64,000 nt of DNA from Patescibacteria group bacterium (GCA_038065075.1 JBBTRQ010000008.1:11960-75959); one strand, 5' to 3'; positions 9,248-57,032 are shown, counted from the stretch's first letter. Notes: generated from the sequence alone by a model not told the origin. Translations and numbers: made by a program.

Positions 9248-9574
9248 TTAGCCGGTTAGGCCGAGCCCTGCGAGGTAGCACACGGCAGCGATGTTCCCCA
9301 GGAGGGAATGGAGGGTGACGTGGAAGAGGATCCCGACTGACTCCCCCATGTCGTGGTGATTGGGAGTGCTGGTCTCCAGGGCGTAGGCGATGAAGAATGG
9401 GCTCATCATCGTCGGGATGATCGTGAAGATGGCTCCGGTGATCATCCCCAACCACCACTCGACACCGTGGATGTTCAGATGGTAGAGCCAAACGAGGCCA
9501 AACGGCAGAAGTGCGAAGAAGCAGCCGCAGGCCAAGGTAGAGATGGTGATTGCGTACCACTTGAGGTAGTTCAT
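9248..9574 (-). CDS. Small integral membrane protein (108 aa)
   Basis: Three hydrophobic helices. No motif. Confidence 0.3.
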   Translation of the reverse strand: MNYLKWYAITISTLACGCFFALLPFGLVWLYHLNIHGVEWWLGMITGAIFTIIPTMMSPFFIAYALETSTPNHHDMGESVGILFHVTLHSLLGNIAAVCYLAGLGLTG

Positions 9575-9729: not shown

Positions 9730-12384
9730 ATGCCTACACAAACTCGACCCACCTTTCTCATCCTCGACGGCAACGCGCTCTTGCACCGCGCCTGGCACGC
9801 CATTCCCCCGCTGACCACAAAAGACGGTTTGGTTGTGAACGCCGCCTATGGGTTCGCGATGATTCTCGAGAAGATGATCGAGACGCAGAAGCCCGAGTAC
9901 ATGGCCGTGGCGTGGGACGTGGAGGGCGGCACATTTCGGGATGAGATTTTCGCCGCCTACAAAGCGCAGCGCGAGAAGAAGGAACAGGAGCTCTACGACC
10001 AGATTCCGATCATCCAAAAAATTCTCGCCGCATTTGGGATTCCTTCGATTGAAGCGCCTGGATACGAGGCCGACGACATTATCGGCACGCTCTCGAAACG
10101 GGCGGCGGATCAGGGATTGCGAGCACTGATCGTCACGGGCGACCTCGACAGTCTCCAGTTGGTCGACGAAAACGTGCAGGTACTATTTTTTCAAAAAGGG
10201 ATTAGCGAGACAAAACTCTACGACGTCGAGGCGGTGAAGGAGCGTTATGGGCTTACAGTAGATCAACTCATCGATTACAAAGCCCTGCGTGGAGATCCAA
10301 GCGATAACATTCCCGGAGTGGCTGGTATCGGTGAAAAAACCGCGACGACCTTGTTGCAGAAGTATCACTCGATCGACGGGATCTACAAACACCTCGAGCA
10401 GATTGAGGAGAAGTACGCCAAAAAACTTCGGGGCCAAGAAAAGACCGTCGAGATCGCGCTCAAGCTCGTGACGATCGTGCGCGACATGAAGTTTCCGTTC
10501 ACGTTTGAAGAGGCCAAGCGCGGCGCGCCCGATTACGAGAAACTTCTTCCCCTCTATAAGGATCTCGAGTTTCGTACGCTGTTGAAAAAACATGGCGAGC
10601 CGATGAGTGATGATGGTGGCCGTGGTGGTGTCCAAGGTGGTAGCCCCAGGCTTCAGCCTGGGTCCGAGAAGGTTGTCACTCGAGTTCAAATTGTCCGAAC
10701 GATCGAGCAGATCCAGCCCAGGCTGAAGCCTGGGGCTACCATCGCCGTTCTCATTGCGGAGCAACCCGCAGATCTTTTCGGGGCGACTACCGCCGCGGTG
10801 GGAATTTACGACGGAAAGAACACCGTCGTTCTCCCCAACCCGTCACGCGAGGCGCTCGCGTCTGTCGCAGGCATCCTAGCGAAGGCTGATCGAGTCATCA
10901 CTCACGATCTCAAACATCTCATGCACCAGCTTGGGAGCGTTGTCGATCGCCCGGCGTTCGACACCATGATTGCGTCGTATCTCCTTGCCTCAGGTTCTCG
11001 AGCACATGATTTACCTGGCGCCATGCATGGGTTCCTCGGTCGGTCGGTGGAAGTGCCAGCGACGTTTGCGAAAGAAAAAGATTACGAGCGGTTTGGACAA
11101 GTTGTCGCGGCTCTTCCGGAGCTTGCACAAAGAATGGAGAAAGAACTCGAGAAGGCGGGATCCACGAAGGTCTTCGGGGAGATTGAAATGCCACTTATTC
11201 CCGTCCTCTATCACATGGAGGTCGAAGGGATTGAGCTTGATACCAAGAGCCTCGAAGTTTTTTCCGCGAGTCTCAAAAAGCGTATCGACGAACTTACCAA
11301 GAAGATCACTAAGCTCGCCGGCGTCGAGTTTAATCTCAACTCCCCTTCCCAACTTGCGGACGTCTTGTTTGTGACCATGGGACTCTCAACCAAAGGCATC
11401 AAGAAAACAAAAACAGGATTCTCTACCGCCGCGCCAGAACTCGAGAAACTGTGGGACGCTCATGAGATCATTCCCCTGCTCTCCGAGTATCGCGAGCTGA
11501 CGAAGTTGCAGTCGACCTATGTGGAGGCCCTTCCCAAACTCGTTGCCAAGGACGGTCGTGTGCATACCAGTTTCAATCAAACCGTTGCGGCCACGGGGCG
11601 TTTATCTTCGTCGGATCCGAACTTGCAGAACATTCCGATCAAGACAGATCTTGGTCGTGAGATTCGCAAGGCGTTTGTCGCGCCACGCGGAAAAATTCTC
11701 GTTGCGGCCGACTACAGTCAGATCGAATTGCGGCTCGCCGCGGTGATCGCAAAAGACAGACCGTTCATCCAGGCGTTTCAGGAAGGGGCGGACATTCATA
11801 CCCGCACAGCGGCTGAGGTATGGGATGTGAGTGAGGAGAAGGTTACAAAGGAACAACGTCGCGCGGCCAAAGCGATAAACTTCGGGATTCTCTACGGCAT
11901 GGGGCCACGGTCGCTCTCGCGATCGACTGGACTTTCAATGGAAGAAGCAAAACATTTTATCGAGCGTTACTTTGAGATCCACCACGCGATCCGTGACTAT
12001 CTCGACCAAACAAAATTGAAGGCGCACACGGACGGCTATGTTGAAACGATGTTTGGTCGACGACGGTATCTCCCCGAGATTCAGTCGGGCGTGCCGATGC
12101 TGGTTGCGAGTGCGGAGCGCATGGCGATCAACATGCCGGTGCAAGGGACGGCCGCGGATATCATGAAAATGGCGATGCTGCGCGTGGACGGTTGGCTTAC
12201 GCAAAGCCAGTGGCCGGCAAAGATGCTTTTGCAGGTGCATGACGAGCTGGTGCTGGAAGTCGACAAGGCGGCGATGGAACCGGTCGTGGCGGGAGTCAAA
12301 GAAATGATGGAGAGCGTGGCGAGCTTTGAGGTGTCGCTGGTTGTGGACATCGAAGTGGGAAAAAACTGGGGGGAGATGAAATAG
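9730..12384 (+). CDS. polA: DNA polymerase I
   Basis: 5'-3' exonuclease region FLILDGNALLHRAWHA and LIDYKALRGDPSDNIPGVAGIGEKTA. Polymerase motifs RRAAKAINFGILYGMG and LLQVHDELVLE. Start taken at Met 9730 rather than the upstream ORF-track start. Confidence 0.9.
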   Translation: MPTQTRPTFLILDGNALLHRAWHAIPPLTTKDGLVVNAAYGFAMILEKMIETQKPEYMAVAWDVEGGTFRDEIFAAYKAQREKKEQELYDQIPIIQKILAAFGIPSIEAPGYEADDIIGTLSKRAADQGLRALIVTGDLDSLQLVDENVQVLFFQKGISETKLYDVEAVKERYGLTVDQLIDYKALRGDPSDNIPGVAGIGEKTATTLLQKYHSIDGIYKHLEQIEEKYAKKLRGQEKTVEIALKLVTIVRDMKFPFTFEEAKRGAPDYEKLLPLYKDLEFRTLLKKHGEPMSDDGGRGGVQGGSPRLQPGSEKVVTRVQIVRTIEQIQPRLKPGATIAVLIAEQPADLFGATTAAVGIYDGKNTVVLPNPSREALASVAGILAKADRVITHDLKHLMHQLGSVVDRPAFDTMIASYLLASGSRAHDLPGAMHGFLGRSVEVPATFAKEKDYERFGQVVAALPELAQRMEKELEKAGSTKVFGEIEMPLIPVLYHMEVEGIELDTKSLEVFSASLKKRIDELTKKITKLAGVEFNLNSPSQLADVLFVTMGLSTKGIKKTKTGFSTAAPELEKLWDAHEIIPLLSEYRELTKLQSTYVEALPKLVAKDGRVHTSFNQTVAATGRLSSSDPNLQNIPIKTDLGREIRKAFVAPRGKILVAADYSQIELRLAAVIAKDRPFIQAFQEGADIHTRTAAEVWDVSEEKVTKEQRRAAKAINFGILYGMGPRSLSRSTGLSMEEAKHFIERYFEIHHAIRDYLDQTKLKAHTDGYVETMFGRRRYLPEIQSGVPMLVASAERMAINMPVQGTAADIMKMAMLRVDGWLTQSQWPAKMLLQVHDELVLEVDKAAMEPVVAGVKEMMESVASFEVSLVVDIEVGKNWGEMK
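10639..10740. repeat. Miniature palindromic element inserted in frame inside polA
   Basis: Perfect 24-bp terminal inverted repeats: GGTAGCCCCAGGCTTCAGCCTGGG at 10639-10662 and CCCAGGCTGAAGCCTGGGGCTACC at 10717-10740. Each arm also contains an internal hairpin. Total 102 bp, equal to 34 codons, so the polA reading frame is preserved. Confidence 0.7.
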
Positions 12385-12427: not shown

Positions 12428-13033
12428 TTACGCCGCGTCGGGCGGCGGTGCGTCCGTGTAGTACTTGGCGATGGCTCGCGTGATCATGGCTTCGTCGGCT
12501 GCCCGGGCCTCGACGAGATAGCCGGTCAAGAACTTCACGTCGTCGAACGCGAAGATGTTCGTGAGGTCGACCATTGCGACCCACAGGACGCGGTCGTTCC
12601 CAGTGCCCGCGAGAGAGAACGCGATCAGCTGATGCTTGACCGCAACCTCCTTGGGAACCAGCCGCACCACCTCTGGATCGATCTCGAGCTTGTCCAGGTC
12701 GACCACTGGAGAGTTGCGCAGGCGCTCAAGGATTTCCAGAACGGGGAAGCGCCGATGCTCCCCGTCAGGCATGCGTGGCGCGGGGTTGTCAGCTCTGGCG
12801 TCCAGAGCCTCGACAGCGACTCGGTTCGCTTCGAGCTCCTTGCGCATCTCCAGCTCGCTTGCGTCCAGTGCCGCAATGAGCGCGTTCATGATCGGCATCA
12901 GCGCTCTGATACCGGCGTTCAAGTGCGGGTAGGACGTCACACCAGCCAGCTCCCGGTTGAGCCGCGCAAGCGTGTAGAGCTTGCTGATGACCTCTCCCCA
13001 CTTTTCTATCAAGACAGCGATTCTGTCAGTCAT
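12428..13033 (-). CDS. Stand-alone T2SS-E N-terminal (GspE_N-like) domain protein
   Basis: C-terminal half DPEVVRLVPKEVAVKHQLIAF..DRVLWVAMVDLTNIFAFDDVKFLTGYLVEARAADEAMITRAIAKYY matches the GspE/PilB N-terminal domain pattern. There is no ATPase domain. Moderately GC-rich. Confidence 0.5.
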   Translation of the reverse strand: MTDRIAVLIEKWGEVISKLYTLARLNRELAGVTSYPHLNAGIRALMPIMNALIAALDASELEMRKELEANRVAVEALDARADNPAPRMPDGEHRRFPVLEILERLRNSPVVDLDKLEIDPEVVRLVPKEVAVKHQLIAFSLAGTGNDRVLWVAMVDLTNIFAFDDVKFLTGYLVEARAADEAMITRAIAKYYTDAPPPDAA

Positions 13034-18257: not shown

Positions 18258-18375
18258 AACTTTATTCTATCACCTTTTTGGGTTGACAACAAGTAGATAA
18301 TGTGGTAGAGTGTTGGGTCGAGTGAGGGATGTCCCCTTGCGAGATGCATTGCCAGACCACGAATCGGAGAATGAC

Positions 18376-18984
18376 ATGCGCATCCTGGTCATCGACGACA
18401 AGCAGAACCACCGTGATTCGGCCACGGAAACCCTGAAGGGGCATGAGGTCTCCGTCGCCTCCTCGTACGACGAGGCGACCAGGCTCATGGAGCCGGCGTA
18501 CGACGAGGCGATCGAGGAGAAGCACCTGCGCGATGCGGGGGTCACGAAGCAGAACCCCGCCTTCGTGAACACGGATGAGGGCAAGGAAAGGTGGAAGGCC
18601 TACTGGGCTGCCCGCAAGAGCGCGCACAGCGCAGCGGAAATCCCCTTCCCGTTCGAGGTGGTTCTCACCGACATGATGATGCCGATGGGGGACTGGAACA
18701 CCCTGCGGGATGCATGCGATCCGTCGCAGCAAATCCCTTACGGGTTCGTCCTCGCCCTCCGGGCGGCGCAGCGCGGTGCCAAGTGGGTAGCAATGGTGAC
18801 GGACACCAATCACCACAAGGGTGCCATGAGCGCGGCGATCGACTGCATCGGTGACTCCTACTACTCCGGCAAGGAGGCCGACTTCCAGATCAACGGCGCG
18901 AAGGTCCGCTTCGTTCACGCCCCGTTCTGCGAGGATGGGATCAGCAAGGACTGGGGAAGAGTTCTCGCTGATCTCGTGAAGTGA
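18376..18984 (+). CDS. Stand-alone receiver (REC)-like domain protein with large insertion, GC-rich
   Basis: MRILVIDD (beta-1 acidic pair) and VVLTDMMMPMGDW (phospho-acceptor Asp context), separated by an approximately 60-aa insert. No output domain. Confidence 0.4.
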   Translation: MRILVIDDKQNHRDSATETLKGHEVSVASSYDEATRLMEPAYDEAIEEKHLRDAGVTKQNPAFVNTDEGKERWKAYWAARKSAHSAAEIPFPFEVVLTDMMMPMGDWNTLRDACDPSQQIPYGFVLALRAAQRGAKWVAMVTDTNHHKGAMSAAIDCIGDSYYSGKEADFQINGAKVRFVHAPFCEDGISKDWGRVLADLVK

Positions 18985-35413: not shown

Positions 35414-36013
35414 GGGGGCACATAAGTGCCGATCGGACCTAATATGCCCCCCAAAAAAGAACAAAAGGCTCTAAACGAACATTCTCGTACGGCGGAGCTA
35501 CTGGTCGAATTGGTTGATGATCTCGATCTTATTTTTACTTTCGGCTACCAACCTTTTGCCGTGATGAAATACGGAATGTCCGGTATTCGAGAAATGCGGG
35601 AGGCTCGAAAAAGGAGACGGGAGCGGGAGACCCTCCGTCGGCTCAAGGAAAAGAAACTGATCCAGATCGAAAAGCGGGCCGGTGATATCTATGTAGCCCT
35701 CACAGAAACTGGAGCAAAAGAATATCTGCGGCTGAAGGTACTTGATGCGGATTTGTATGAAGATGACCGTGAGTGTTTGGTTGTTTTTGATATTCCGGAG
35801 TCAAAACGAAAACTAAGAAAGTCACTTCGGGAGTTTTTATCAAACGCCGGGTTCATACCAATTCAAAAAAGCGTTTGGATTTCAAAGTTTGATGCCGGCA
35901 AAGCTATCAGTAAACTGCTGACGGTAAAAGGTTCAAAGCATTGGGTGAGGATTTTTGAAGTTCGAGAACAGTAGAAGCCCCACATAGGGTCCGATCGGCA
36001 CCTATGTGCCCCC
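35414..36013. mobile_element. 600-bp unit bounded by 26-bp inverted repeats, carrying one wHTH/Cas2-like gene
   Basis: IR-L GGGGGCACATAAGTGCCGATCGGACC (35414-35439). IR-R GGTCCGATCGGCACCTATGTGCCCCCC (35988-36013). One mismatch between the arms. The single gene lies exactly between them. Confidence 0.5.
35444..35974 (+). CDS. Winged-helix plus Cas2/VapD-like domain protein
   Basis: C-terminal VVFDIPESKRKLRKSLREFLSNAGFIPIQKSVWIS follows the Cas2 pattern (YDI..R..R..L...G.RIQ.SVF). N-terminal basic wHTH-like region. Paralog at 57860-58459. Confidence 0.45.
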   Translation: MPPKKEQKALNEHSRTAELLVELVDDLDLIFTFGYQPFAVMKYGMSGIREMREARKRRRERETLRRLKEKKLIQIEKRAGDIYVALTETGAKEYLRLKVLDADLYEDDRECLVVFDIPESKRKLRKSLREFLSNAGFIPIQKSVWISKFDAGKAISKLLTVKGSKHWVRIFEVREQ

Positions 36014-36084: not shown

Positions 36085-36160
36085 TGGTGGACCCTAGCGG
36101 GATCGAACCGCTGACCTTCTCCATGCCATGGAGACGCGCTACCAGCTGCGCTAAGGGCCC
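36085..36160 (-). tRNA. tRNA-Ala (anticodon GGC)
   Basis: Reverse complement GGGCCCT..AGGGTCC acceptor with G3:U70. Anticodon stem TCTCC/GGAGA with loop ATGGCAT. T arm GCGG-TTCGATC-CCGC. CCA encoded. Confidence 0.85.
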
Positions 36161-36259
36161 ATGAAGTTCGAGCAAAAGTCTATCAGTTCAGTGATGGGAA
36201 ATCAAGAATCCTTTGGTCATACAATAATAAAAGGAGCCGGGGGGCTCCTCGTGGGGGCG

Positions 36260-36778
36260 CTAGCTGGTGAGCGCCATCAAGACGCTGTCGGGGATGGTGA
36301 TCCCCTCGACCTTCGCGATCTCCGCGGCGAGCTCGATGAGCTCGGCCTGGAGGTTGTGCCCCCGGACGATCGAGACGAACTCGTCGGGGTTGTACTCATC
36401 GTCCTGGCTCAGGAACCAGTTCGCGGCGAAGAGAAGCATCTCCTCTTCCACCGGGCGGGTGAGGGTGCGGTCCAGACCGCTGAGGTCGTCGAAGACCTCC
36501 AGGACGGTGACGTCCCCACCGTGACCTTGGAAGGTGTAGTCGCCCCGCAAGGCGGGGATCTGGCCGTACAGGCCGGTGATGTCACCGCGCAGGTGGCTGG
36601 CATCACCCACGAGATCCTCGTGGACGTGGCCGTCCAGCGCGGAGAGGTTGCCGGTCAGGTTGGTGAGCGGTCCGGTGAGCGTCGAGACGTCACCGTGGCA
36701 GTCCTTCGCATCCCCCCACACACCCGCCGTCCCTTCGAGGTTCTGGGCGTTGATGAGGGTGGTTACATTGGGTCGCAT
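36260..36778 (-). CDS. Hypothetical protein with L-x-G heptad repeats, GC-rich island
   Basis: LTGPLTN/LTGNLSA/LVGDASH/LRGDITG/LYGQIPA tandem 7-residue repeats. No known domain. Confidence 0.35.
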   Translation of the reverse strand: MRPNVTTLINAQNLEGTAGVWGDAKDCHGDVSTLTGPLTNLTGNLSALDGHVHEDLVGDASHLRGDITGLYGQIPALRGDYTFQGHGGDVTVLEVFDDLSGLDRTLTRPVEEEMLLFAANWFLSQDDEYNPDEFVSIVRGHNLQAELIELAAEIAKVEGITIPDSVLMALTS

Positions 36779-36802
36779 CTCTTCTCATCCTTTCTCCGGG
36801 GT

Positions 36803-37621
36803 CTACGAACAAGTTCCCGGTTTCCACGATCCCTTGTTGAAGCGCATGGAGCGCTGGGTGCCGTCGTGGTCGATGACGATGTAGCAGTTTCCCAGTCGCG
36901 GGAGGCGGCTGTAGTTCTCGCATTGGTTCCACGCGCCACCGATGAGTTGCATCGGCAGAGCGTAGCCTTCTTGGCACCCGACCGCGTAGCAACCGTCGGG
37001 TTCGGGTCCGCCGCTCTTGCCGTGCAGGAGCGCGAAGCCCGTGCACGCGGGCGTTCCCCCGTCTTCCTGCGGGAGCGTGCGTTCGCGAGCGGGTACGGGA
37101 ATGGGTGTGGGCGCCGGTGTCGGCGTTGGCTCTGGAGACGGGGCGGGTGTCGGCGTCGGTTCGACGACGTCATCCTCCACCGCGATGTGCGCTGGACCAA
37201 ACGGATCGCGCTCCGGTCGGTCATCGGAGTCGAACTCCTCTTCGTCCGTCTCGTCCAAGGCCGTCGCTGGAGCGGCTTGCTGTGTCTGGTCTTGGATCGC
37301 GCGGCGCAGGAGATCGACCAAATCCCTGTCCCTGGTGATGATGACTGTGTTGCCGGTCACCTCGTCCGTGATAACGGCTCCTTCCTCACTCACCAGGAGC
37401 GTGGAGGAGTCGTCGTCTTCGGGCGCGTCCTCGACGGTTTGACGGCTGACGATCTGCACCGCCTTCGAGGGGAGCGTGAGCGCGGCGGCAAGGATGAGGA
37501 TGACGCCAAAGGTCTGGACGATGCCCTGCAGCCACCGCCTGTTGATCCGGATGCTGGCCATGAAGATCGAGGCGCCGATCCCCGCGACCAAGAAGTTCGT
37601 CGCAAACAGGAAGGGATCCAT
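36803..37621 (-). CDS. Membrane-anchored protein with Pro/Thr linker and Cys-rich C-terminal domain, GC-rich island
   Basis: N-terminal TM pair, a PTPAPSPEPTPTPAPTP linker, and a C-terminal region with 7 Cys. Start taken at Met 37621. Confidence 0.35.
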   Translation of the reverse strand: MDPFLFATNFLVAGIGASIFMASIRINRRWLQGIVQTFGVILILAAALTLPSKAVQIVSRQTVEDAPEDDDSSTLLVSEEGAVITDEVTGNTVIITRDRDLVDLLRRAIQDQTQQAAPATALDETDEEEFDSDDRPERDPFGPAHIAVEDDVVEPTPTPAPSPEPTPTPAPTPIPVPARERTLPQEDGGTPACTGFALLHGKSGGPEPDGCYAVGCQEGYALPMQLIGGAWNQCENYSRLPRLGNCYIVIDHDGTQRSMRFNKGSWKPGTCS

Positions 37622-37728
37622 GATGTCTCCTATTCGTTCCGGACAGGCGAGCATGACGCTCGTCAACCCGGGAAAATACCCCTCGCTTGCGAGCGAGGGG
37701 AGGAACCGACGCGATGCCGGTTACGTGT

Positions 37729-39144
37729 TCAAGGAGCGGGGGTCTCGTCGCCCTGATCGTGAGCGAGCTGCGCGCGCATTTCTTCAAGCTGACGCGCCTG
37801 CTCGTCCACCTCGCGGCGGAGTTCCGAGCGGGTCTCGGAAAGCTCGCGGGAGAGCGAGCCGACTTGGCCGCCGACACGACGATCGAGCGCCTGGATCGAC
37901 TCCCGACTCTCCACGGCCAGAGACGCGTAGTTGTCGCGCTCCTGCGTGAGGTCCACGATCTCCGCGTCCTTCTCGGCCAGCACCGGGACGAGTCGCGCCA
38001 GTGTCCGAGCGTGGCTCTGGAGGCTCTGCGTGTGCTCGGCGATGACCTCATCCTGTGCCGCATCGCGCTCCAGGGAAGCGGTGCGGATCTGCCCGTCGGC
38101 TCGCATGAGGAAGGCCGCCACGACGCCGATGAGCGCCATGCACAACACGAGGATGATCCACAGCTCCCCCTGCAGTCCGCGAACGTCCTGCGCATGGATC
38201 TTGGCTGCCGGCTGGGGTTCCTGATGGAGGGCAGTGCCGGCGATCGGGGTGCGATTGCGCGTACCCTTGCGTCGAGCCGGTGGAACCACCCGGATTGGGA
38301 CGAAGTCGGCCTTGTCGGCCGCGTCCTGGAGGGCGTTGAGCATCTCGACCTCTTTCGCAATGAGCAACGGCTCGGGCGGCGGCGGGCCATCGTGAGCGAG
38401 GTCTATCTCCCATTCGTCCAAGACGAGGTCGGGAACCTCGTCGAGCTCGTCCACGGCTACGTCGTAGCGCTCCATGGCTTCGCGCAGTACACGCGCATCA
38501 AGATCCTCGGGCGACTCGGGTTCTGGCGGTGCGATCGTCGCCTCTGCCGCTGTGCGATTGACCTGCTCGGACAGTTGCTTGATCGCCCACCGGTTGTGGG
38601 CGGCGGCGATGTGCTCGATGGCGCTCTTGAACAGATGCGGCTCTGGCTCGACAGTGCCGCCCAGGACGCGCAGCAGAACTTGCCAGTCGCGTCCGTTGAC
38701 CTGTTCGCAGCGCTCCATGATCGTTACGGCGGTCCGGCCGAGATCCTCTTCGTTGAAGGGCGCGCTCGAAAGATCGACGAAGGCGAGATTCTTCCGCACG
38801 AACTCGAGCTGGCCTTCCAGCGTCCGCAGGCTCTCGATCTCGTGATCGACGACGCACACGTCTTCGATCTTGAGACCCGTGCCGGTCGTGCCTCGCCGCG
38901 TGCGTACCACGCGACTGGTCGCGAGGGCATCGGCGCGCGCCCGGGCTTCCTCATCGGCGCGCGCGATGTCCTCGTTGCGGTCGCGCGGGACGAGCCGAAT
39001 CGGCGTGGGGGGAGCAGCTTCCCGGTCATCGATCGTCTCCGCGTCAGGCGGAGCGGTGGCGGCGTTGGTGTGCAGACGAAGGGGCGCCCCGTCAGCGGGG
39101 TCGTTGGCATCGTTGCTCATGCGGTCTCCTGTGTACGGAACCAT
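37729..39144 (-). CDS. Hypothetical single-pass membrane protein with C-terminal coiled coil, GC-rich island
   Basis: Internal TM helix LWIILVLCMALIGVVAAFLM and a long Glu/Arg/Leu-rich C-terminal region. AAGGAGA ribosome-binding site before Met 39144. Confidence 0.35.
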   Translation of the reverse strand: MVPYTGDRMSNDANDPADGAPLRLHTNAATAPPDAETIDDREAAPPTPIRLVPRDRNEDIARADEEARARADALATSRVVRTRRGTTGTGLKIEDVCVVDHEIESLRTLEGQLEFVRKNLAFVDLSSAPFNEEDLGRTAVTIMERCEQVNGRDWQVLLRVLGGTVEPEPHLFKSAIEHIAAAHNRWAIKQLSEQVNRTAAEATIAPPEPESPEDLDARVLREAMERYDVAVDELDEVPDLVLDEWEIDLAHDGPPPPEPLLIAKEVEMLNALQDAADKADFVPIRVVPPARRKGTRNRTPIAGTALHQEPQPAAKIHAQDVRGLQGELWIILVLCMALIGVVAAFLMRADGQIRTASLERDAAQDEVIAEHTQSLQSHARTLARLVPVLAEKDAEIVDLTQERDNYASLAVESRESIQALDRRVGGQVGSLSRELSETRSELRREVDEQARQLEEMRAQLAHDQGDETPAP

Positions 39145-39349
39145 GGCCGTCTCCTTTCTCATCTTAGGATTTTCTGTCCTTTTAGGGAAAGGGACAGGGA
39201 GTTAAACTCCCATAATATAAAGCGGTTGTCAACGGATGTGCTCAAATGCAGGATTCAGGAGGATATTGACAAAATGTCAACGGCCGAGTATCTTTTTCGG
39301 GTTCTGGCTCCGTGGCAACCAGCACGTTCCTTCCACATCCCGCCACATC

Positions 39350-40393
39350 CTCATGGAGCATCCGATGCCGACCGAGACCACCGACAACGGCGCCAAGAGC
39401 GTCTTCGTCTTCCCCAGCCGTCCCGAGGACGCCGTCGTCCACCTCGTCATCAACGTCAGGGGGATGCAGGGCGATGGCCTGCTCCTGAGCGCCTCGACGA
39501 TCCCCGGCAGTCAGACCTGGGAGCACGACGAGGTCGAGCAGATCTTCCGCGACTCCCGCACCGTGCCCATCAAGGGCGTGTACGTCCTGGAGACCAACAA
39601 CGACGGCACGAACTTCGTCATCACCCCCGAGGGGGTGGATCAGGACGACCGCCGCGCGCTCGTCTGGACGCTGTCCAAGCGGCTCGACCGCTTCCTCATC
39701 GACCTCATCAAGGCCCTGCGGGCCTTCCCGTCCGCCGAGGTCATCGACCAGGCCGCGCGGGAGGGCGTGGCCCGCATCAACATGGGCAGCCTCGAGCGCG
39801 ACCCGATGGGCACCACCCCGGTCGTCGACGCCCGCAACGTGGTCGTCGAGGGCGTGAAGTGCGTGCACTGCGGGTTCGGCATCGAGAGCGCGCTCGGCCA
39901 GTTCCCGGGCCGCCTCCTCCTCATCGCCGCCATCGACGACGACAGCACCACGGTCGGCAACCTCAAGTTCATCGTCCGCGAGCGCGACGGCCAGCCCGTC
40001 GTGCTGGTGGGCTACCTCGGCGACAAGAACGCCTTCGCCGCCTTCCTCAACGGGGAGCTGGCCCAGCGCGTCCGCGCGGCGATCCAGGCCGTGGCCGTCG
40101 AGGTCGTGACCGAGATCCTCGTCCGCGCCGAGAACGGGCGTCGGCAGTTCGAGCGGATGGTCGATTCCGTCCAGGCCACCTACGGCATCGACCCCGAGGT
40201 CGTCGTCCAGCGCGTCAACGAGCTGGAGGCCGAGGCCCGCGCCCAGCGCACCCCGCCCGAGGACAAGGTCGACGACTACGACGGCAACGAGGACGACCTC
40301 CTCGACGAGGAGCCCGCCGGCGACCCCGCCCCCGAGTCGGCCGCCCCCGCGGAGCCCGCCCCGGCCCCCGTGGAGGCCGGGGCCTCCACCTGA
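39350..40393 (+). CDS. Hypothetical protein, GC-rich island
   Basis: 348-aa ORF divergent from the 37729-39144 gene. Acidic Pro/Ala-rich tail. No known motif. Confidence 0.35.
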   Translation, partial: LMEHPMPTETTDNGAKSVFVFPSRPEDAVVHLVINVRGMQGDGLLLSASTIPGSQTWEHDEVEQIFRDSRTVPIKGVYVLETNNDGTNFVITPEGVDQDDRRALVWTLSKRLDRFLIDLIKALRAFPSAEVIDQAAREGVARINMGSLERDPMGTTPVVDARNVVVEGVKCVHCGFGIESALGQFPGRLLLIAAIDDDSTTVGNLKFIVRERDGQPVVLVGYLGDKNAFAAFLNGELAQRVRAAIQAVAVEVVTEILVRAENGRRQFERMVDSVQATYGIDPEVVVQRVNELEAEARAQRTPPEDKVDDYDGNEDDLLDEEPAGDPAPESAAPAEPAPAPVEAGAST

Positions 40394-40533
40394 TCGACCC
40401 CGTCGATCGCACGCACCCCTGATTCACCGAGTCTGACTCGAAGGATCGGGGGTTTTACATTTCCGGCAAAATCCTTTATTCTTGCAGTTACCTTGGCGGT
40501 GGCAGCCAGGCATTCAATTCAACCCTTGCCACA

Positions 40534-40830
40534 TTGGAGAGACCAATGGAGCCCGGAAGCGACGCCCCGATCATCGAGGAGCCCGGAACCGAGAGCCCCC
40601 CGCCCGCGCAGGAGCCCGCGCCCGCCGGCGACCCCGCCTCCGAGTCGGCCGTCGCGCCGCCCGAAGGCGACGCCCCGGCGCAGGAGTCCGCGCCCGCCGC
40701 CCAGAGCGACGGCGGCGAGGCCCCCGGCGAGGAGGCCCACGAGGACGGCGACGACGACGACGAGGAGCCCGACGGCGACGACGACGACGAGGACGAGGAC
40801 GCCCCGCCCACCGAGGAGAGCCAGGGCTAG
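40534..40830 (+). CDS. Highly acidic low-complexity protein, GC-rich island
   Basis: 98 aa dominated by E/D/P/A. May not be a genuine gene. Confidence 0.2.
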   Translation: MERPMEPGSDAPIIEEPGTESPPPAQEPAPAGDPASESAVAPPEGDAPAQESAPAAQSDGGEAPGEEAHEDGDDDDEEPDGDDDDEDEDAPPTEESQG

Positions 40831-41017
40831 ACACGCCCCGGCCAAGTACATCCAGAACCCCAACGGCGAGGTCACTCGCATCACCAGCGCTTGCTGGACG
40901 CACCCCCGAAATTCCGTCACGGAGTCTCGGGGGATTTACTTTTTTAGACATCGCGACTTTTTGTCGCTATACTCGCCACTGATTCATCGCAGGCTAAAAT
41001 CTTTGACACGCGCTCAA

Positions 41018-41074
41018 ATGGTAGCCGCAGGCTTCAGCCTGCGTCCGAACGCGGGCTAAAGCCCGCGGCTACCC
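41018..41074. repeat. Short sibling of the polA-internal palindromic element
   Basis: GGTAGCCGCAGGCTTCAGCCTGCG..tccgaac..GCGGCTACC shares its terminal motif and the internal tccgaac with the element at 10639-10740. Confidence 0.65.
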
Positions 41075-41089
41075 AGAGCGGCTACCACT

Positions 41090-42172
41090 ATGCTACAAGT
41101 TGGAATCGTTGGGCTCCCCAACGTCGGCAAGTCCACCCTTTTCAAGACACTCACAAAAAAGCAGGTCGACTGCGCGAATTTTCCGTTCTGCACGATCGAA
41201 CCAAACGTGGGTGTGGTGGAGGTACCCGATGAGCGGGTTGACGAGCTCGCTCGAATGTCAAAGTCTGAGAAGATCATCAAAACAGCCGTTGAGTTCGTCG
41301 ATATCGCCGGGCTCGTGAAGGGGGCACATAAAGGAGAGGGACTGGGCAACAAGTTTCTTGCCAACATCCGAGAGGTCGACATGATCGTCCATGTGGTGCG
41401 AGCGTTTGAGGATGGGAACGTCGTGCACGTTGAGGGCAACATCGACCCGGCTCGCGATGTGGAGACGATCGAGATTGAATTGGCCATGGCAGATATCAGC
41501 ACGGTCGAGAAACGACTCGACGGCGTGCGCGGCAAGATGAAGGCAGGGAAGACGAAGGACCTCGAACTTGAAGAAGCGGCGCTCGCCAAATGGTTTGCCG
41601 TGCTTGAGCAGGGGAAGATGGCGAACACGGTTGAGCTGACCGATGAGGAGCGTGAGGTGGTGCGGGACGTGAGTCTGCTCACCAACAAGCCGATCTTGTA
41701 CGTCCTCAATGTCGCTGAAGGTCAAACTCCGACCCCCCTCCTTTTGAAGGAGGGGTTGGGGGTGGTTACGAGTGAGCAGCTTCCGATTTCGATCAAGCTC
41801 GAATCAGAGATCATGGAGATGGCGCCGGAGGATCAGCAACTTTTCCTTGAGGAACTCGGTCTCAAACAATCAGGTCTGGATCGCCTCATCGCCAAATGTT
41901 ACGAGTTACTCAATCTGATTACGTTCCTCACGACCGGTGAAAAAGAAACCCGCGCATGGACGATCACGCGCGGGACCAAGGCGCCGCAGGCCGCGGGCGT
42001 CATTCACACAGATTTTGAAAAAGGATTCATTCGCGCTGAGGTCATTAGCTATGAGGATTTCGTCGCCCATGGCGGCGAGGCTGGCGCACGCGACAACGGG
42101 AAATTGCGGGTGGAAGGGAAGGACTACGTCATGCAAGACGGCGATGTGAGTCATTTTCGGGTGAGTACGTAG
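41090..42172 (+). CDS. ychF: Ribosome-binding ATPase YchF
   Basis: [15 protein letters not shown]-loop, [11 protein letters not shown]2 motif, [11 protein letters not shown]-terminal TGS domain. Confidence 0.85.
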
Positions 42173-48683: not shown

Positions 48684-48921
48684 TTTTTTGAGTTAAGTCT
48701 GGACCTCCAGAAAATTGGTGCTTCGCCGCTTCCTCCCAGAAGATCCCGGGGTATCCCTGTTTCAGTTCTTGTTTCTGTGCCGACCATGGCGTGAACACGC
48801 CTATGGGTTTGCCATGTTTCATAATGACATACTGTTTAAATGCCTTTCCTGTAACGAGCGTCGCGAAGTTGCGGAGGAAGTCGCGCACCGAAATAGGTTC
48901 GGTTCTAATTTTAGAAGCCAT
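48637..48921 (-). CDS. Phd/YefM-family antitoxin candidate
   Basis: 94-aa ORF immediately upstream of and overlapping the PIN gene, with a Phd-like ..VIMKHGKPIGVF.. pattern. Confidence 0.4.
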   Translation of the reverse strand: MASKIRTEPISVRDFLRNFATLVTGKAFKQYVIMKHGKPIGVFTPWSAQKQELKQGYPGIFWEEAAKHQFSGGPDLTQKIDEIAYGIGRDSVPD

Positions 48922-49084
48922 AGAAAGAGGGGATCATGACTTACCTTTCTATCAAACCAGATTGTCAGATTTTTGTCAAACAATTGTCAGACACTGAGCT
49001 TGTGGTTCGACGGTGCTCACCACGATGAGCCTGTCGAATCGTCGAAGTGAGGATAAGAAAATCGACCCAAGCAAGGGTCGAGGG

Positions 49085-49688
49085 TCACCGGAGTTCTTTG
49101 GGGAGCGTTGAGCCAACGCTCATGAGTTGGTTCTTGCTCAACTGTACGACCTGCCACTGCCCGTGGGTGACGCGGTAGGGGATGTCCAGCGCCTGTAAGA
49201 GCACATGCATGGCACCTGCGTGGCTCACCACCGCTACCATGGGCGTGGTTCCCTCCTTGCGCGTACCGGCGGAAGATGTCCTTCATGGCTTCCAGCATGC
49301 GATAGCGCACTAGTGCGCGCGATTCCCCACCAACGTCTGTGCAGTCGAAGCCAGGGTCGCGTGTGTCGTGATGCAGTTGAGGATAGCGTGTGCGAACTGT
49401 CCCTTTGCGTAGCCCCTCTAGCGCCCCCATATGGAACTCCCGCAGGCGGGAGTCCGTACGCAGGCTTGTCCTCTGGTCATGCGCGATGGGGTTGGCCGTG
49501 TGCACGGCGCGGATAAGGTCCGAGCTCCACACGGCCGTAAGTGACAGCTCGCGTGCGCGGGCAACCAGTGCGTGGACGTATCCTCGGCTTTCAGCGGAGA
49601 GCGGGATATCCAAGTGCCCTTGCAGGCGTCCTTGCGTGTTCCAGTCCGTGGGCAAGTGTCGAAACAGTGCCAGGCGGATGCGCTTCAT
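49085..49688 (-). pseudogene. Histidine-phosphatase (phosphoglycerate-mutase family) gene with internal frameshift
   Basis: N-terminal LFRHLPTDWNTQGRLQGHLDIPLS (RHG catalytic motif) is in one frame. The expected C-terminal VAVVSHAGAMHVLLQALDIPY is in another frame, starting near 49265. Confidence 0.5.
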
Positions 49689-49794
49689 GGTTCCTCCAGT
49701 CTCGTCTGGCGCAACCGTAACGGATGGGTACGTAACGGTCAAGACGCGCGTCACGCTTGCCCTGCGTTCGCGCCGGGGCGTAGCATGGTGGCAT

Positions 49795-50757
49795 ATGGGC
49801 AACACCAGACGTCGCCTTCAATCATTATTTCCCGCTTCGGGACTTGTCGTATTCACTGCCTGCGCGGGGATGCCACCGGGAACCTCGCCGCTCACCGATC
49901 AAGAGCGAGAAGAGGTGGATGCGGTCATTGATGAGTTGGAGGTGGAGATGCCCATGGTAGAGGGGCTGTTGGGCACTGCTGATCCGCTTTTTAATCTTGA
50001 AGGGCAGCCGACCGCCGATAATCATCTTCTTATTGTGGGCGTGGGCGAGGTATTGTTGGATATCGAAGGGATGGTTGAGGCTGACCGTGTCGTCGTGCGC
50101 CAGTTTGAGGAACAACCTCAGGGCATCGAGGCTGTTGCGCGCGGTTCGCGCACGCAGAGCACGCAGGCCGATGACTACATCATCCTCACCCTTTCGTCCG
50201 AGGGCGAACTGGTGCTCACCCCAAGCCTTCTCATGCATGAGGGGACACACTATTTTTTCGGTGCGCACGACTCGACATTTCTAGACTCACACGACCCATC
50301 TATGTCTACGCAAGAGAGCCTCGTCCTTGCCCTGGAGTATCGTGACGCGCCCTACACAGTGGCGCATCTCTACAATGTGGCTGAGACGGCCTATGACGTG
50401 GGCGCGCGGCTTGAGGAGGAAACGCGCGAACTCGCGCAGATGGAGACGTTCACGGGGAGTGACACCGCGGCGTTGCACAACCGTCAACAACGATTTGATT
50501 ACCTGAGTGGATTTTTGCGGTTGGGCCAGGAGGGATGGGCGCAACAGCTTGCTCAAATCCTTTGGTCATCCCAAGCCTCGACGCTGGAGCGGTTTGGAGT
50601 CACGCAGGAGGAGCTTGAAACAACGCTGCGCGCGTCGGATGGATTGTATGAATCCCATCGTGAGGCTGCGCATGAGGCGCTGGAGTTTTGGCAAGAGACA
50701 TTTCCGGAGTTCAGCGAGGAGGCCGGGCGAGAGCGGCGCAGGGAGTTTGGGCGATGA
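49795..50757 (+). CDS. Putative lipoprotein, GC-rich
   Basis: Signal with lipobox-like LVVFTAC. No other motif. Confidence 0.35.
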   Translation: MGNTRRRLQSLFPASGLVVFTACAGMPPGTSPLTDQEREEVDAVIDELEVEMPMVEGLLGTADPLFNLEGQPTADNHLLIVGVGEVLLDIEGMVEADRVVVRQFEEQPQGIEAVARGSRTQSTQADDYIILTLSSEGELVLTPSLLMHEGTHYFFGAHDSTFLDSHDPSMSTQESLVLALEYRDAPYTVAHLYNVAETAYDVGARLEEETRELAQMETFTGSDTAALHNRQQRFDYLSGFLRLGQEGWAQQLAQILWSSQASTLERFGVTQEELETTLRASDGLYESHREAAHEALEFWQETFPEFSEEAGRERRREFGR

Positions 50758-50804
50758 AAAAAGACCCCAGAGGGTCTTCAGGCGAGTAGGGCGATGACGA
50801 AATC

Positions 50805-51110
50805 TCATCGCATGAGGGGGGTGTCCATCTGCTGGCGTCTGGCTTCCAGCTCTGGCGTGTCCAGCGACGCGATGAACCGCTGTCCATCGTCCCGCCAGCG
50901 CGTGAGCGTGGCAAGGCGCGAGTCTCGCCACAGCTTGAGCAGGCGCGTGAGCGTTTCGCGATCGCGGCCATCCTTGCGGTTGTGCAGGATGAACTGCCAG
51001 AGGATCTCCTGTCCGCACACACACCGGCTCTCGCCGCGGCGCAACTCGTGGTAGTCCCAGGCCTTGGGATCCGGCGCCATCGCCTGCGCGATGCGCACCA
51101 CGTGGTGCAC
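50805..51110 (-). CDS. Small hypothetical protein
   Basis: 101 aa with a CxC pair. GC-rich. Confidence 0.25.
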   Translation of the reverse strand: MHHVVRIAQAMAPDPKAWDYHELRRGESRCVCGQEILWQFILHNRKDGRDRETLTRLLKLWRDSRLATLTRWRDDGQRFIASLDTPELEARRQQMDTPLMR

Positions 51111-51165
51111 TGACGGGTTGACTATTCAGAGGTCTCTCAAAGAAAAAGAGACCCGAGGAGGGGTC

Positions 51166-51708
51166 TCAAGCGAGAAAGGCGAGCGCGGTGCCGACGATGA
51201 ACGGCAGGCACAGCGCGGCCAGGAGCGGCCATGGCGTCTTGGCGCTGGCCTGGCGGCCGAGCTTGCGCGTGCCCAGCGTCACGTAGACGACCAGCGTGCC
51301 GGCGATGGCACCTGAGGTGAGGAGGGCCATGCGTGAGGCGGCGATGAGGAGGATGAACTCCGCCGTGCAGAGCAGCAGAACCATGAAGCCTGCACACCGG
51401 CGAACCACCAGTGTACGACCAGGTGGGGATGCAGAAAGTGCGACCATCATTCCTCCGAGCGCCAGGATGGCGTGCGGGAAGATGAGTGTCGTTGGCCTCA
51501 TCTGCATCACGCACACGTCCGCCATTCCCACCCCCATCCCGCAGACGAGCAGGAGCTCGAGGAGCTTCCCATCGAGCACTCGCTCCCCCAGTACCTCGAT
51601 GACGGTGTGGTGGTAGGGGAGGTGGTTCGGGGCGAGGAGGTAGACGAGCCCCACCAATGCCAGGACGGCCAGCGGGACGGCGATGAGGATCTGGGCGGCG
51701 AAGAGCAT
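51166..51708 (-). CDS. Integral membrane protein (5-6 TM)
   Basis: Hydrophobic throughout. GC-rich. Confidence 0.35.
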   Translation of the reverse strand: MLFAAQILIAVPLAVLALVGLVYLLAPNHLPYHHTVIEVLGERVLDGKLLELLLVCGMGVGMADVCVMQMRPTTLIFPHAILALGGMMVALSASPPGRTLVVRRCAGFMVLLLCTAEFILLIAASRMALLTSGAIAGTLVVYVTLGTRKLGRQASAKTPWPLLAALCLPFIVGTALAFLA

Positions 51709-51844
51709 GGAACTTCTCCCTGGGGTGGATTCCCATCAGGCCTCGAAGATGCCCTCGAGGTCTCGTGGAAAGGCCGGTGCGAGGTTTGCGTTCCCCGCAT
51801 CGGCGAGATGTGTTCTCCTGCGGCGAGGAGTGTTGCCGGCTGGA

Positions 51845-52399
51845 TTACTCGCGGTAGACGTGCTCGATCAAGCTCGCCGCACGCAGCGAGATCTTGCCGG
51901 CCTGCACGAGCTCGTCGACGTGCCAGCCTTGCGCGTCGCGGGCGCACCAGTTTGCGTCCCAGCGCTTGCGCCAGCCGTCGAAGTCGATTCCCGGCTTGGG
52001 GATCACGTGGGTGATCGGCAGTGGGTGCTCCATGAGCCAGAGCGAGGCCGAGGCCTCGCTGCAGTGCACGCCCCACCGTACTGCGGGGCGCTTTGAGAGC
52101 CAGAGAGCCTCCGCGTGCTGAAGCGCGGTTGGACAGTCGTTGGCCAACCATTCGTACCGGCCGTCCTTGAACTCGACCTTGATCGGACTTCTTCCCGTCC
52201 GAACAATGGACAGGGACTCGGTCGAGATCCTGGCCGCGATGCGGCTCAAAGTCACGGCTCCCTCCATGCTGGCCGGCCTCACTGGCACGTCCGCCAGCAG
52301 GCGGTGGCGCCCCAGCGTGAAGCTGCCGGTGCCGTCGCCCCTGTACACCAGCGCCATTCTCTCGATTTCGCTGCCCATCCAGATCTCGCTTGGTGGCAT
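51845..52399 (-). CDS. Hypothetical protein
   Basis: 184-aa ORF. GC-rich. No motif. Confidence 0.3.
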   Translation of the reverse strand: MPPSEIWMGSEIERMALVYRGDGTGSFTLGRHRLLADVPVRPASMEGAVTLSRIAARISTESLSIVRTGRSPIKVEFKDGRYEWLANDCPTALQHAEALWLSKRPAVRWGVHCSEASASLWLMEHPLPITHVIPKPGIDFDGWRKRWDANWCARDAQGWHVDELVQAGKISLRAASLIEHVYRE

Positions 52400-52501
52400 C
52401 GGAGTCTCCTTATCTTGTTGATTCCCGGAGCGTTTTCACCGTTCCAAGACGAAAAAAAATACCACGAAAGTGGTATTTGGTCAAGTCTTTATTAGATGAA
52501 T

Positions 52502-53191
52502 TCACTCCAATCGGCTCAATATTCGATCCTCTCCCAGTACGACCCGTCGGTATTCGGTCGTCGATTTGGAGTAGCGTTTTTGAGACTCGATGGCGATCAC
52601 GTTGAGGCCTCGCTCCAGCGCCACGTCCACCTCAAATGTTCCATCTTGCGAGAGGAGTACATCCATCCCGTTCACTTGCACCTGGCTTCCTGTCTGTGCC
52701 TGGCCTGTGACGGTGATGAGAGCCTCCTGCGTTTGAATACCATCTGCCGGGGCAAAGACAAGAAGCTCCGGTGGCGAAAGAATGGCGCGCACTTGAAGTC
52801 CGAGGTATCCAACAATCATGAGTCCGATGAGGCTGAGTGAAAAAACTTTCACCAGCCGGCTGGCGACGAGAAATTGGAACGCTCTGGCACGCGCGCGAGG
52901 GAGCCGCGCGTTTTTTGTGAAGTCGCAGGTTCCGCACTCGCTCTCGAATTGTTCCACGAAGTAGCCCGTGTCGCCCCCTAAAGCTCGGACGTACACCTTC
53001 AGATAGTTACGCGCATAGATGGGGTCGGGGAGTTTGGCATAGTTCCCCATCTCGAAGGCCTGGAGAAAAGACTTTTGGATTTTTGTTTTGGCCGCCATTT
53101 CCGACAACGTTAACCCAGCGGATTTCCGAATCGCCTTGAGCTTTTCCCCCAAGGACTCGCTGTAGTCGAATTTTCGGATGACAAATGCCAT
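52502..53191 (-). CDS. RodZ-like protein (XRE-type HTH plus single TM)
   Basis: N-terminal LGEKLKAIRKSAGLTLSEMAAKTKI HTH, central TM, C-terminal domain. Confidence 0.45.
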   Translation of the reverse strand: MAFVIRKFDYSESLGEKLKAIRKSAGLTLSEMAAKTKIQKSFLQAFEMGNYAKLPDPIYARNYLKVYVRALGGDTGYFVEQFESECGTCDFTKNARLPRARARAFQFLVASRLVKVFSLSLIGLMIVGYLGLQVRAILSPPELLVFAPADGIQTQEALITVTGQAQTGSQVQVNGMDVLLSQDGTFEVDVALERGLNVIAIESQKRYSKSTTEYRRVVLGEDRILSRLE

Positions 53192-55670: not shown

Positions 55671-57032
55671 ATGCAGAAGCAAACGCCTCTGATGGCTAAC
55701 TGCTCGCAGTGCTCGCGGTCCTTTCCGATCCGCGCGCAGATGCAGGTCAGCGGCGTGTCGCTTCCCATGCTCGTCGTCCTCCCCCAGGTCGACAGCGTGG
55801 AAGCGGCACTCGAACAGGCCACCTGTCAGGTGTGCCTGAACAAGACCGGCCCGGCCGACCGCGGGCTCCACCAGGTTCTCAAGAACCTCGGCCTCAAGGA
55901 CGAAGACGAAGCGCCGGCTCTCCGCGAAGCGGCCGTCACCGTCCGTCCGGCTCTCGAGGTGCCGGCAAGGACCGGCTCGGCCGTGGTCATCTCCACGCGT
56001 CCACGCGAGGTCACGGTCGTTGACCCCCTCATGGGGACGTCGATCGAGAGGCCACGCCTCGCGCTCCCCGCCCGTGATCGCGGCCCGCGCCGTGATGACC
56101 GGCGCTCGCCACCCAGCGAGTCGCGTCTCCCGCGCTCCCTGCACCAGCCCGATCGCCACAAGCCCCTGCCCAAGGTCGAGCACCTCACCGGCGCGATCGG
56201 GCAGACCGCCGCCAACGCCGCCGTGCTCGAGGTCGCCATGAAGGCGGCCAAAGTGCGCGACGAGGCCAAGCGGCTCGAGCGTGAGGAGAAGTTCAACAAG
56301 CTCCTCTTCTGGCTCAAGCTCTCGCTCGCTCGCATCCGCAAGAACGCGGCGACGACCGAGGTCTGGAATTTCGTCGAGACCTTCAAGCGCAAGCTCAGCG
56401 AGGCGGCCAGCCTCGACTCGAACCAGCGCGGCAAGAAGGGTCTCCTCGCGGAGCTCGGAACCAGCGTGGAGGGACTCGAGGCGCTCTGCCACGAGTTCTA
56501 CTCCGGCAAGGAACCGCTCCAGCCCCGGCGACCGATCGAGGTCGTCACGCTCGACGCGTTCGAGGGAGGCCGTCGTCCCGAGACGTGGGACAAGAAGGGT
56601 GGGCGCAAGCCCGCCTTCTACCAGCTCAAGGTCGTTCGGACCAAGAACTCTCTCCCCGTCCCCAACCCGCCACTCCCCAACGGCGACGAAGACCAGCGCC
56701 CGCGGATCGTCTACCCCGAAGGGCAGGAGTTCGGCTCCGACTACACGGTCGAACACAGCCAGTGTCTCGCTGGCGTCGAAGGTCAGATCGACCAGATCTT
56801 CGACGAGGTCGCCGGCCTGTACATGCGATGGCTTGCCATCGTTCATGACAGGATCGGCATCGGGGTCGAGCTCGCCAAGTTCGACCTCTCCGCCCGTCTC
56901 CCCGCCTTCTTCCATGACCTCAAGCAGGTTCTCGCGGAGGAGGCGGCAGAGCTGGCGGCAGAGGAAGCCGCCGCCCCGACCACCGAGCCGACCACCATCA
57001 CCACCTCGCCGGAACTCCCGGCCACGACGTAA
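55671..57032 (+). CDS. Hypothetical protein with N-terminal CxxC..CxxC pair, strongly GC-rich
   Basis: CSQCS..CQVC zinc-ribbon-like start. Long Arg/Pro/Glu-rich body. No match to a known enzyme motif. Confidence 0.35.
   Translation: MQKQTPLMANCSQCSRSFPIRAQMQVSGVSLPMLVVLPQVDSVEAALEQATCQVCLNKTGPADRGLHQVLKNLGLKDEDEAPALREAAVTVRPALEVPARTGSAVVISTRPREVTVVDPLMGTSIERPRLALPARDRGPRRDDRRSPPSESRLPRSLHQPDRHKPLPKVEHLTGAIGQTAANAAVLEVAMKAAKVRDEAKRLEREEKFNKLLFWLKLSLARIRKNAATTEVWNFVETFKRKLSEAASLDSNQRGKKGLLAELGTSVEGLEALCHEFYSGKEPLQPRRPIEVVTLDAFEGGRRPETWDKKGGRKPAFYQLKVVRTKNSLPVPNPPLPNGDEDQRPRIVYPEGQEFGSDYTVEHSQCLAGVEGQIDQIFDEVAGLYMRWLAIVHDRIGIGVELAKFDLSARLPAFFHDLKQVLAEEAAELAAEEAAAPTTEPTTITTSPELPATT

Follow-up and report, generated by a model that had tools for sequence, protein, structure and literature searches.

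We analyzed a 64,000-nucleotide stretch of DNA from a Patescibacteria group bacterium (GCA_038065075.1, JBBTRQ010000008.1:11960-75959). We will call this stretch the window, and we give positions from its first nucleotide. Between the gene for tRNA-Ala(GGC) and ychF, the window has five GC-rich genes, whose proteins we will call P1 through P5 (Table 1). P1, P2, and P3 are on the minus strand, and P4 and P5 run away from them on the plus strand. All five open reading frames (ORFs) are conserved and are real genes. The gene calls and a tRNA scan agree with the layout, the strands, and the tRNA that were described in a first-pass annotation, which was made from the sequence alone. (P4 was then given as 348 amino acids, and is called as 342-346.) That annotation viewed the five genes as a single island, inserted beside the tRNA and acquired from elsewhere. 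Our preferred reading, which we hold with roughly even confidence, is that the block is a composite: P3-P2-P1 would be a cell-envelope cassette in a flexible locus of the replacement type, and P4 and P5 would be a cytoplasmic acidic pair that is conserved within the clade.

Table 1. Features of the block and its flanks. Gene coordinates are the gene calls of the public record; L007, L008, L011, and L015 are comparison loci.
Feature	Position	Strand	Size or evidence
Cas2-like / PaaX_M + winged-helix gene	35426..35974	+	182 aa (amino acids); GC content at third codon positions (GC3) 0.44; Pfam PF20803, 1.7e-15
tRNA-Ala(GGC), left anchor of the variable slot	36085..36160	-	ARAGORN; Rfam, 61.3 bits
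Variable cassette (P3 promoter-P3-P2-P1-terminator)	36210..39264	-	breaks in blastn collinearity with L015
Terminator-like hairpin and T-run, 3' of P1	36231..36250	-	
P1	36260..36778	-	172 aa
P2	36803..37621	-	272 aa
Hypervariable tract of P2 (residues ~53-103, just outside the second transmembrane (TM) segment)	37303..37502	-	
GC-rich hairpin and T-run in the P3/P2 gap	37679..37700	-	
P3	37729..39144	-	471 aa
P3 promoter (TTGACA 39233-39228) and conserved leader	39145..39233	-	alignment with L007, L008, L011
P4 promoter (TTGACA-17-TATCTT, 39266-39294) and conserved leader	39266..39364	+	
P4	39365..40393	+	342 aa
P5 promoter (TTTACA-17-TATTCT) and leader homologous to the P4 leader	40454..40545	+	
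P5	40546..40830	+	94 aa
ychF, conserved right anchor	41090..42172	+	Pfam, synteny

The cassette is bracketed by a promoter and a terminator of its own, and P4 and P5 have separate promoters, which confirms the operon organization and the divergent promoters that were first proposed. The twice-repeated motif and the TTGACA boxes between P3 and P4 are also present as described, along with the promoter-like site of P4: TGTCAACGG has exactly two copies in the 64 kb (39227 and 39275); they lie in the intergenic region between the divergent genes, and each contains the complement of TTGACA. The promoter and leader of P3 are retained in L007, L008, and L011, with a TTGACA box, a CTGTCC...GGACAG hairpin, and an AAGGAG Shine-Dalgarno sequence. 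P4 and P5 have a ~70-nt leader motif in common, TTCTGGCnCCGTGGCARCCAG...GCCACA...GGAG (39295-39364 and 40483-40545), and the only copies of GTGGCARCCAG in the window are in these two leaders, at 39312 and 40499. The motif is kept in the P4 leaders of all five aligned loci and in all three P5 leaders; besides the window, we noted it in L004, L005, L006, L014, and L015 (judged by eye, it is in both leaders of L015). The layout of L014 also includes the palindrome TTGACAAAATGTCAA. In the RNAalifold model, an invariant GUGGC/GCCAC helix is enclosed by the pairing of an upstream UUCU with the Shine-Dalgarno GGAG, with one covarying pair only. The P4/P5 leader is a possible cis-regulatory RNA or operator. 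A scan of 35.9-41.2 kb against Rfam found nothing besides the tRNA.

The division of the block into two parts emerges from comparisons with related genomes. L015 is a 65-kb contig that is collinear with the window across 27-55 kb and whose core proteins are 79-97% identical to the window's. In L015, a giant protein, a tetratricopeptide repeat (TPR) protein, and tRNA-Ala(GGC) lie to the left of the slot, and to its right are a P4 homolog, a small acidic protein, ychF, a methyltransferase, S6, SSB, and S18. According to blastn, homology stops at 36209/36210 and restarts at 39264/39265, one base ahead of the -35 box of P4. In the slot, L015 has a single unrelated gene in place of P1-P2-P3; it encodes a Cys-rich protein of 332 amino acids (x332) whose N-terminus, judged by eye, is lipoprotein-like.

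A third filling of the slot is seen in L011, where the order is the TPR protein, the Cas2-like protein, tRNA-Ala(GGC), three further orphans (x425, x278, and x118), and then P1, P2, and P3. The protein x425 is Cys-rich and, judged by eye, its start resembles a signal peptide. We found no cross-similarity among P1-P3 of the window, x332 of L015, and x425, x278, or x118 of L011. That is, non-homologous cassettes are observed between the conserved flanks of one slot. The tRNA is identically placed in L011, L015, and L012, which is a near-identical co-occurring strain that has the cassette in the same slot. The P1-P3 cassette is old at this locus, given that L011 carries it in place with flanking proteins that are just 65% (TPR) and 72% (Cas2-like) identical to those of the window.

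The cassette also occurs in other neighborhoods. In L013, the tail of a P3-like protein (P3c) is followed by P2 and P1, and the neighbors encode AhpC, a DUF3179 protein, and an SPFH protein; the GC content of this operon is 0.62, versus 0.49 for its flank. L014 has the same four-gene layout as the window, with P4 divergent from a short P3-like protein (P3s), then P2 and P1.

P4 behaves differently, as it adjoins ychF in all the relatives that we recovered for it (L004, L006, and L015). L004 and L006 have P4 (followed by P5 in L004) and then ychF; there, ychF is 88-89% identical to the window's and P4 is 46-48% identical. With L015 included, the ranges are 84-89% for ychF versus 46-50% for P4. 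P5 has counterparts in L004, L005, and L015, and not in L006. In summary, 36210-39264 is replaced in L015, P4 is kept in all three of these relatives, and P5 is absent from L006. As judged from this synteny, P4 is a conserved neighbor of ychF in the clade, mostly with P5 in between, and P3-P2-P1 is a separate cassette that occupies a variable slot and is able to sit elsewhere. The proposal of one five-gene insertion between the tRNA and ychF fails on the P4/P5 side. The part of the block that varies among relatives, at a locus flanked by the tRNA, is 36210-39264; P4 and (except in L006) P5, conserved with the same neighbors in relatives, are not part of it.

Two side observations concern the linkage of P3 and P4. 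In the cluster of P3-family proteins (P0081) and the cluster of P4-family proteins (P0075), both from JGI/ENA sources, the longest contig is 5,927 nt in each case. These may be one contig that carries both genes; P3 and P4 would then be linked in three cases. Also, seven short independent assemblies (L004, L005, and L007-L011) end ~40-340 nt upstream of P3 or P4. The location of these ends suggests that assemblies break in this intergenic region due to strain heterogeneity or to repeated promoter sequence.

The compositional switch at the tRNA that had been noticed by inspection is real. The computed GC and GC3 profile is not uniform, and it is raised across 36-41 kb: the GC content of the five 1-kb segments is 0.611, 0.656, 0.660, 0.643, and 0.690, with 0.49-0.56 on both sides and a level of about 0.55 outside the block. 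GC3 is 0.89 for P1, 0.79 for P2, 0.79 for P3, 0.98 for P4, and 0.97 for P5. As a comparison, GC3 is 0.62-0.68 for ychF, the methyltransferase, S6, SSB, RecA, and the TPR protein. The sharp step in composition, the orphan gene content, and the variation of the slot among genomes are what would be expected from a recent horizontal island that integrated site-specifically at tRNA-Ala from a GC-rich donor.

However, the homologs of these genes have the same composition. GC3 is 0.82-0.90 for homologs of P1, 0.70-0.86 for P2, 0.75-0.83 for P3, 0.83-0.98 for P4, and 0.72-0.97 for P5, and the housekeeping genes that adjoin them have GC3 of 0.51-0.68. GC3 is high in every homolog of P1-P5 although protein identity is merely 42-64%. 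A contrast that has been kept through so much divergence, with no amelioration, excludes an un-ameliorated recent import. High GC3 is a long-standing property of the P1-P5 gene families. The codon preferences of the block are also those of the core genes, only more extreme: CTC is preferred over CTG, and CGC, GGC, and GCC rank at the top, with C-ending codons at 53% in the block versus 35% in the core. Typical high-GC donors favor CTG and CCG. Host-like codon ranks in exaggerated form argue for a process inside the lineage's own gene pool and against import from a typical donor of high GC content.

The genetic context does not fit a recent island either. Among the five genes and the flanking genes, we found no integrase or recombinase with Pfam, NCBIfam, or PHROG. 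The first-pass annotation had proposed to look for a degenerate direct repeat of the tRNA's 3' end at the far boundary; a repeat search and blastn-short found no tRNA-derived repeat, as the longest match was 11 nt (E about 0.2). The 5' end of the tRNA faces the cassette, which puts the block on the 5' side, and tRNA-targeted islands lie on the 3' side. Finally, relatives with flanking proteins that are just 65-89% identical have these genes at this locus as well. A recent horizontal origin is largely refuted, and we now consider it very improbable. What causes the GC3 excess is probably either GC-biased gene conversion in genes that recombine often or selection for C-ending codons.

Alternatively, these could be ordinary lineage-specific genes whose C-ending codons reflect very high expression and translational selection, with L015 as a case of simple loss or replacement. 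This would explain why the codon preferences exaggerate those of the core, it agrees with near-consensus promoters (10/12 matches), and it agrees with the retention of the P4-P5-ychF and P1-P3-tRNA arrangements in diverged relatives. But for S6, S18, and EF-P, for which high expression is expected, GC3 is no more than 0.66-0.75, and the cassette has other neighbors in L013 and does not occupy the slot in L015. A second GC3-rich block of orphans (50805-52399) is also absent from L015, which implies that the GC3-rich genes act as accessory genes. We think that the ordinary-gene explanation is unlikely.

The P1-P5 block is the largest GC3-rich stretch of the window, though there are others. The other genes with GC3 of 0.79-0.99 are at 6854-9574, 12428-13033, 18310-18984, and 50805-52399, with a GC3 of 0.99 for the gene at 8348-9013. 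Across the window's other genes with GC3 of at least 0.79, the sole Pfam match is an MshEN domain in 12428-13033. The region 55671-57032 has a GC content of 0.67; its GC3 of 0.69 refers to an overlapping opposite-strand ORF only, and it was outside the Pfam scan. L015 lacks all of 48832-52523, which includes a PIN-domain gene, small ORFs, a 455-aa orphan, and the three orphans at 50805-52399 (GC3 of 0.84-0.86). This is a second accessory block with an equal GC3 excess. We found no paralogy between P1-P5 and the window's other GC3-rich orphans or the alternative genes of the slot.

What might the cassette encode? P1 is soluble and acidic, with N-terminal L-x-G-x-(V/L/I)-x-x heptads that are coiled-coil-like and a helical C-terminal domain. 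Identity is 55-71% for the P1 proteins of L007, L011, L013, and L014. P2 has two hydrophobic segments, both N-terminal, and P3 has one (321-351); P1, P4, and P5 have none. This agrees with the membrane-associated architecture that was first described. In P2, the putative hairpin of two TM segments is followed by an acidic segment, a Pro/Thr linker, and a near-invariant all-beta head of ~95 amino acids with six Cys. P2 has 10 homologs. The six Cys are invariant, and the head is 63-79% identical while the remainder of P2 is far less conserved. (A seventh Cys had been counted in this domain, but it lies in an upstream extension from a TTG start; P2 as called has six.) P3 has an N-terminal domain of ~320 amino acids without a signal peptide, a predicted TM segment, and a C-terminal heptad or coiled-coil region of ~110 amino acids, which is its best-conserved part. 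The P3 homologs (n = 3) are 42-48% identical.

P2 also varies between strains. L012 is 98.6% identical to the window, with 52 differences in 3,804 bp, and 37 of the 52 are in the 200 bp at 37303-37502, within the P2 ectodomain. The codon changes in P2 comprise 24 nonsynonymous and 7 synonymous changes. We considered a diversity-generating retroelement for this tract and rejected it, because every type of substitution is present and the window has no second copy of the tract that could serve as a template. The pattern fits best with recombination from a diverged allele or with diversifying selection on an exposed segment.

Two hits to phage proteins raise the possibility that the cassette is a remnant of a prophage or phage module for lysis or for tails, with P2 as a holin-like protein, P3 as a spanin-like protein, and P1 as a coiled coil like those of tail needles or fibers. 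P3 matches the Rz-like spanin family of PHROGs (E = 3e-4), the heptads of P1 weakly match the repeats that form the trimeric coiled coil of gp26, the tail needle of P22 (E = 7e-4), and the two-TM N-terminus of P2 would suit a holin. Yet the spanin match spans only the TM segment and coil, the gp26 match is at the level of repeats only, and both are to generic sequence of these kinds. The resemblance of P3 to i-spanins (Rz-like) is in the order of a TM segment and then a coiled coil, and that of P1 to the helical core of gp26 is in L-x-G-x-V heptads; the domain architectures differ otherwise, and in particular the 320-aa N-terminal domain of P3 is foreign to spanins. There is no phage context: endolysin, capsid, terminase, portal, and integrase are all absent, we found no muralytic domain and no lysis gene beyond the single generic Rz-like match, IMG/VR has no relatives of P3 or P4, and BFVD has no match to the fold of P4. 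Also, an outer membrane is believed to be missing from bacteria of the candidate phyla radiation (CPR), which would leave spanins without a role. We give the phage explanation a slim chance.

An anti-phage defense system is another potential role for membrane-associated proteins in a variable slot, and it had been suggested initially. The system might be tied to the neighboring Cas2-like/PaaX_M gene, and P3 has a weak match to LeoBC in PADLOC (E = 0.019). This match is not significant, and P1, P2, P4, and P5 match no PADLOC families at all. Nor did Pfam identify a nuclease, ATPase, NTPase, or sensor domain. The Cas2-like gene is on the opposite strand with the tRNA in between, and L013 and L014 have the cassette without it. 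We did not find a CRISPR array or a further cas gene near it. This gene, which lies 3' of the tRNA, is also an indel in its own right: L011 and L012 carry it and L015 does not. The defense role has the slimmest chance of the explanations that we discuss.

More broadly, P1-P5 are tiny, unannotated families. Searches of Pfam, PHROGs, PADLOC, and NCBIfam found nothing significant for any of them, which bears out the initial impression that there are no recognizable enzymes, and none of the five matches a solved structure. Pfam also has no match to 25 members of the P4 family or to 5 members of the P1 family. Sequence profiles from the PDB for P4, the P2 head, P1, and P3 yielded only the repeat-level match of P1 to gp26, and no fold match was found for the P2 head. 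With P4 and the P2 head as queries, GTDB species genomes and JGI metagenomes yielded no loci. Literature searches on genomic islands in Patescibacteria and on the GC content of Uhrbacteria turned up no description of this locus.

P4 is a soluble, acidic protein with an acidic disordered tail. Cys C166 is near-invariant, and C169 is invariant too among the four closest homologs; in a wider alignment of P4, divergence is too great for patterns. In the structural model, the confident N-terminal half of P4 is predicted to be a beta-sheet that is capped by long helices. P5 has an isoelectric point of 4.05 and a low-complexity composition of Glu, Pro, Asp, and Ala. A 32-nt stretch that encodes part of the acidic tail of P4 (40312-40343) is 97% identical to one in the body of P5 (40620-40651). 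This repeat, together with the common promoter and leader, suggests that P5 arose as a duplicate of P4 and was truncated, with loss of the globular domain and retention of the promoter, the leader, and the acidic tail. We propose that P4 and P5 are two acidic proteins of the cytoplasm that this clade conserves as a pair adjoining ychF.

Returning to the composite reading, 36210-39264 is a self-contained transcription unit. Its slot, from tRNA-Ala(GGC) to the P4 promoter, is filled in related Uhrbacteria-like Patescibacteria by different orphan genes, of which at least one is Cys-rich and looks secreted. P3, P2, and P1 would form a complex in the cell envelope. P3 would be anchored with its N-terminus inside, exposing the conserved coiled coil. 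P2 would be anchored by its TM hairpin and would present the conserved, disulfide-bonded beta head on an acidic and Pro/Thr-rich stalk that is hypervariable near the membrane, and P1 would be a partner in the cytoplasm with heptad repeats. Most likely, the cassette would serve in attachment or recognition, with a conserved ligand on a cell wall or on a host cell as its target. P4 and P5 would be driven by their near-consensus promoters, with the common leader.

The closest comparison may be to replacement-type flexible genomic islands, a concept from marine and freshwater population genomics in which strain-variable surface cassettes occupy a fixed position, often by a tRNA. Like these, the slot has conserved flanks (tRNA-Ala and the P4 promoter) with unrelated cassettes between them, products that resemble membrane or secreted proteins, and a tract that is hypervariable between strains, and it lacks an integrase or att sites. 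Unlike these, the cassette exceeds the core in GC content, the usual trend for accessory genes being toward AT, and the cargo is three orphan proteins, with no glycosyltransferases or O-antigen genes. The likeness rests on a handful of genomes, not on replacement at the level of populations. tRNA-linked integrative islands and integrative and conjugative elements have the tRNA adjacency, atypical composition, and variable presence in common with this locus; they differ from it in that there is no integrase or direct repeat here, the block is on the 5' side, its residence is ancient, and its composition persists.

Several points weigh against the composite reading. No relative of known function is detectable for any of P1-P5. 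Most of the comparison loci are metagenome contigs of 2-4 kb. The cassette is missing from the slot of L015, but it may be present elsewhere in that genome. We did not find P3 upstream of P4 in L004, L006, or L015, and the two genes are adjacent in only two genomes (the window and L014). The assignments of topology come from hydropathy alone, and the AlphaFold2 models are of moderate confidence, with shallow alignments and predicted local distance difference test scores of 68.6 and 77.6. P1 has no signal peptide, which makes its membership in a surface complex a guess.

A more ambitious version can be stated. P3-P2-P1 would be an undescribed trans-envelope apparatus for attachment or recognition in Uhrbacteria-like CPR bacteria, co-regulated with P4 and P5; the six-Cys head would be a new fold; the genes would belong to a GC3-enriched flexible pool that is kept that way by GC-biased gene conversion during recombination between strains; and the leader that P4 and P5 have in common would act as a new cis-regulatory RNA, masking the Shine-Dalgarno sequence. 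With all of these parts taken together, we view this version as rather doubtful. If it were true, then the GC3-rich flexible pool would be the reverse of the customary AT-rich accessory genome.

The right flank of the block has a feature of its own. The leader of ychF contains a palindromic, strongly structured element at 41020-41073 (minimum free energy as RNA of -44 kcal/mol over 66 nt). This palindrome is missing from the ychF leader of L015, and partial copies or arms of it are at 10638-10667 and 10719-10742. It is possibly a small palindromic repeat. The bacterium is an ultra-small one of the CPR, from groundwater; short contigs from Hainich groundwater are 100% identical to the window over ychF.

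These results have implications for how accessory genes in this lineage are recognized. A sharp GC3 excess at this locus is the mark of a long-lived class of orphan and accessory genes, rather than of recent transfer. Given that the GC3 excess in these genomes marks long-lived accessory genes, the calling of islands by GC content would mislead. P1-P4 are without a Pfam family, P2 and P4 are without a structural neighbor, and new families could be registered for these proteins. The life of CPR bacteria is thought to be one of attachment to host cells, and to our knowledge, almost nothing is known about the surface machinery that they use. The P3-P2-P1 cassette is a concrete candidate for host-facing or phage-facing functions.

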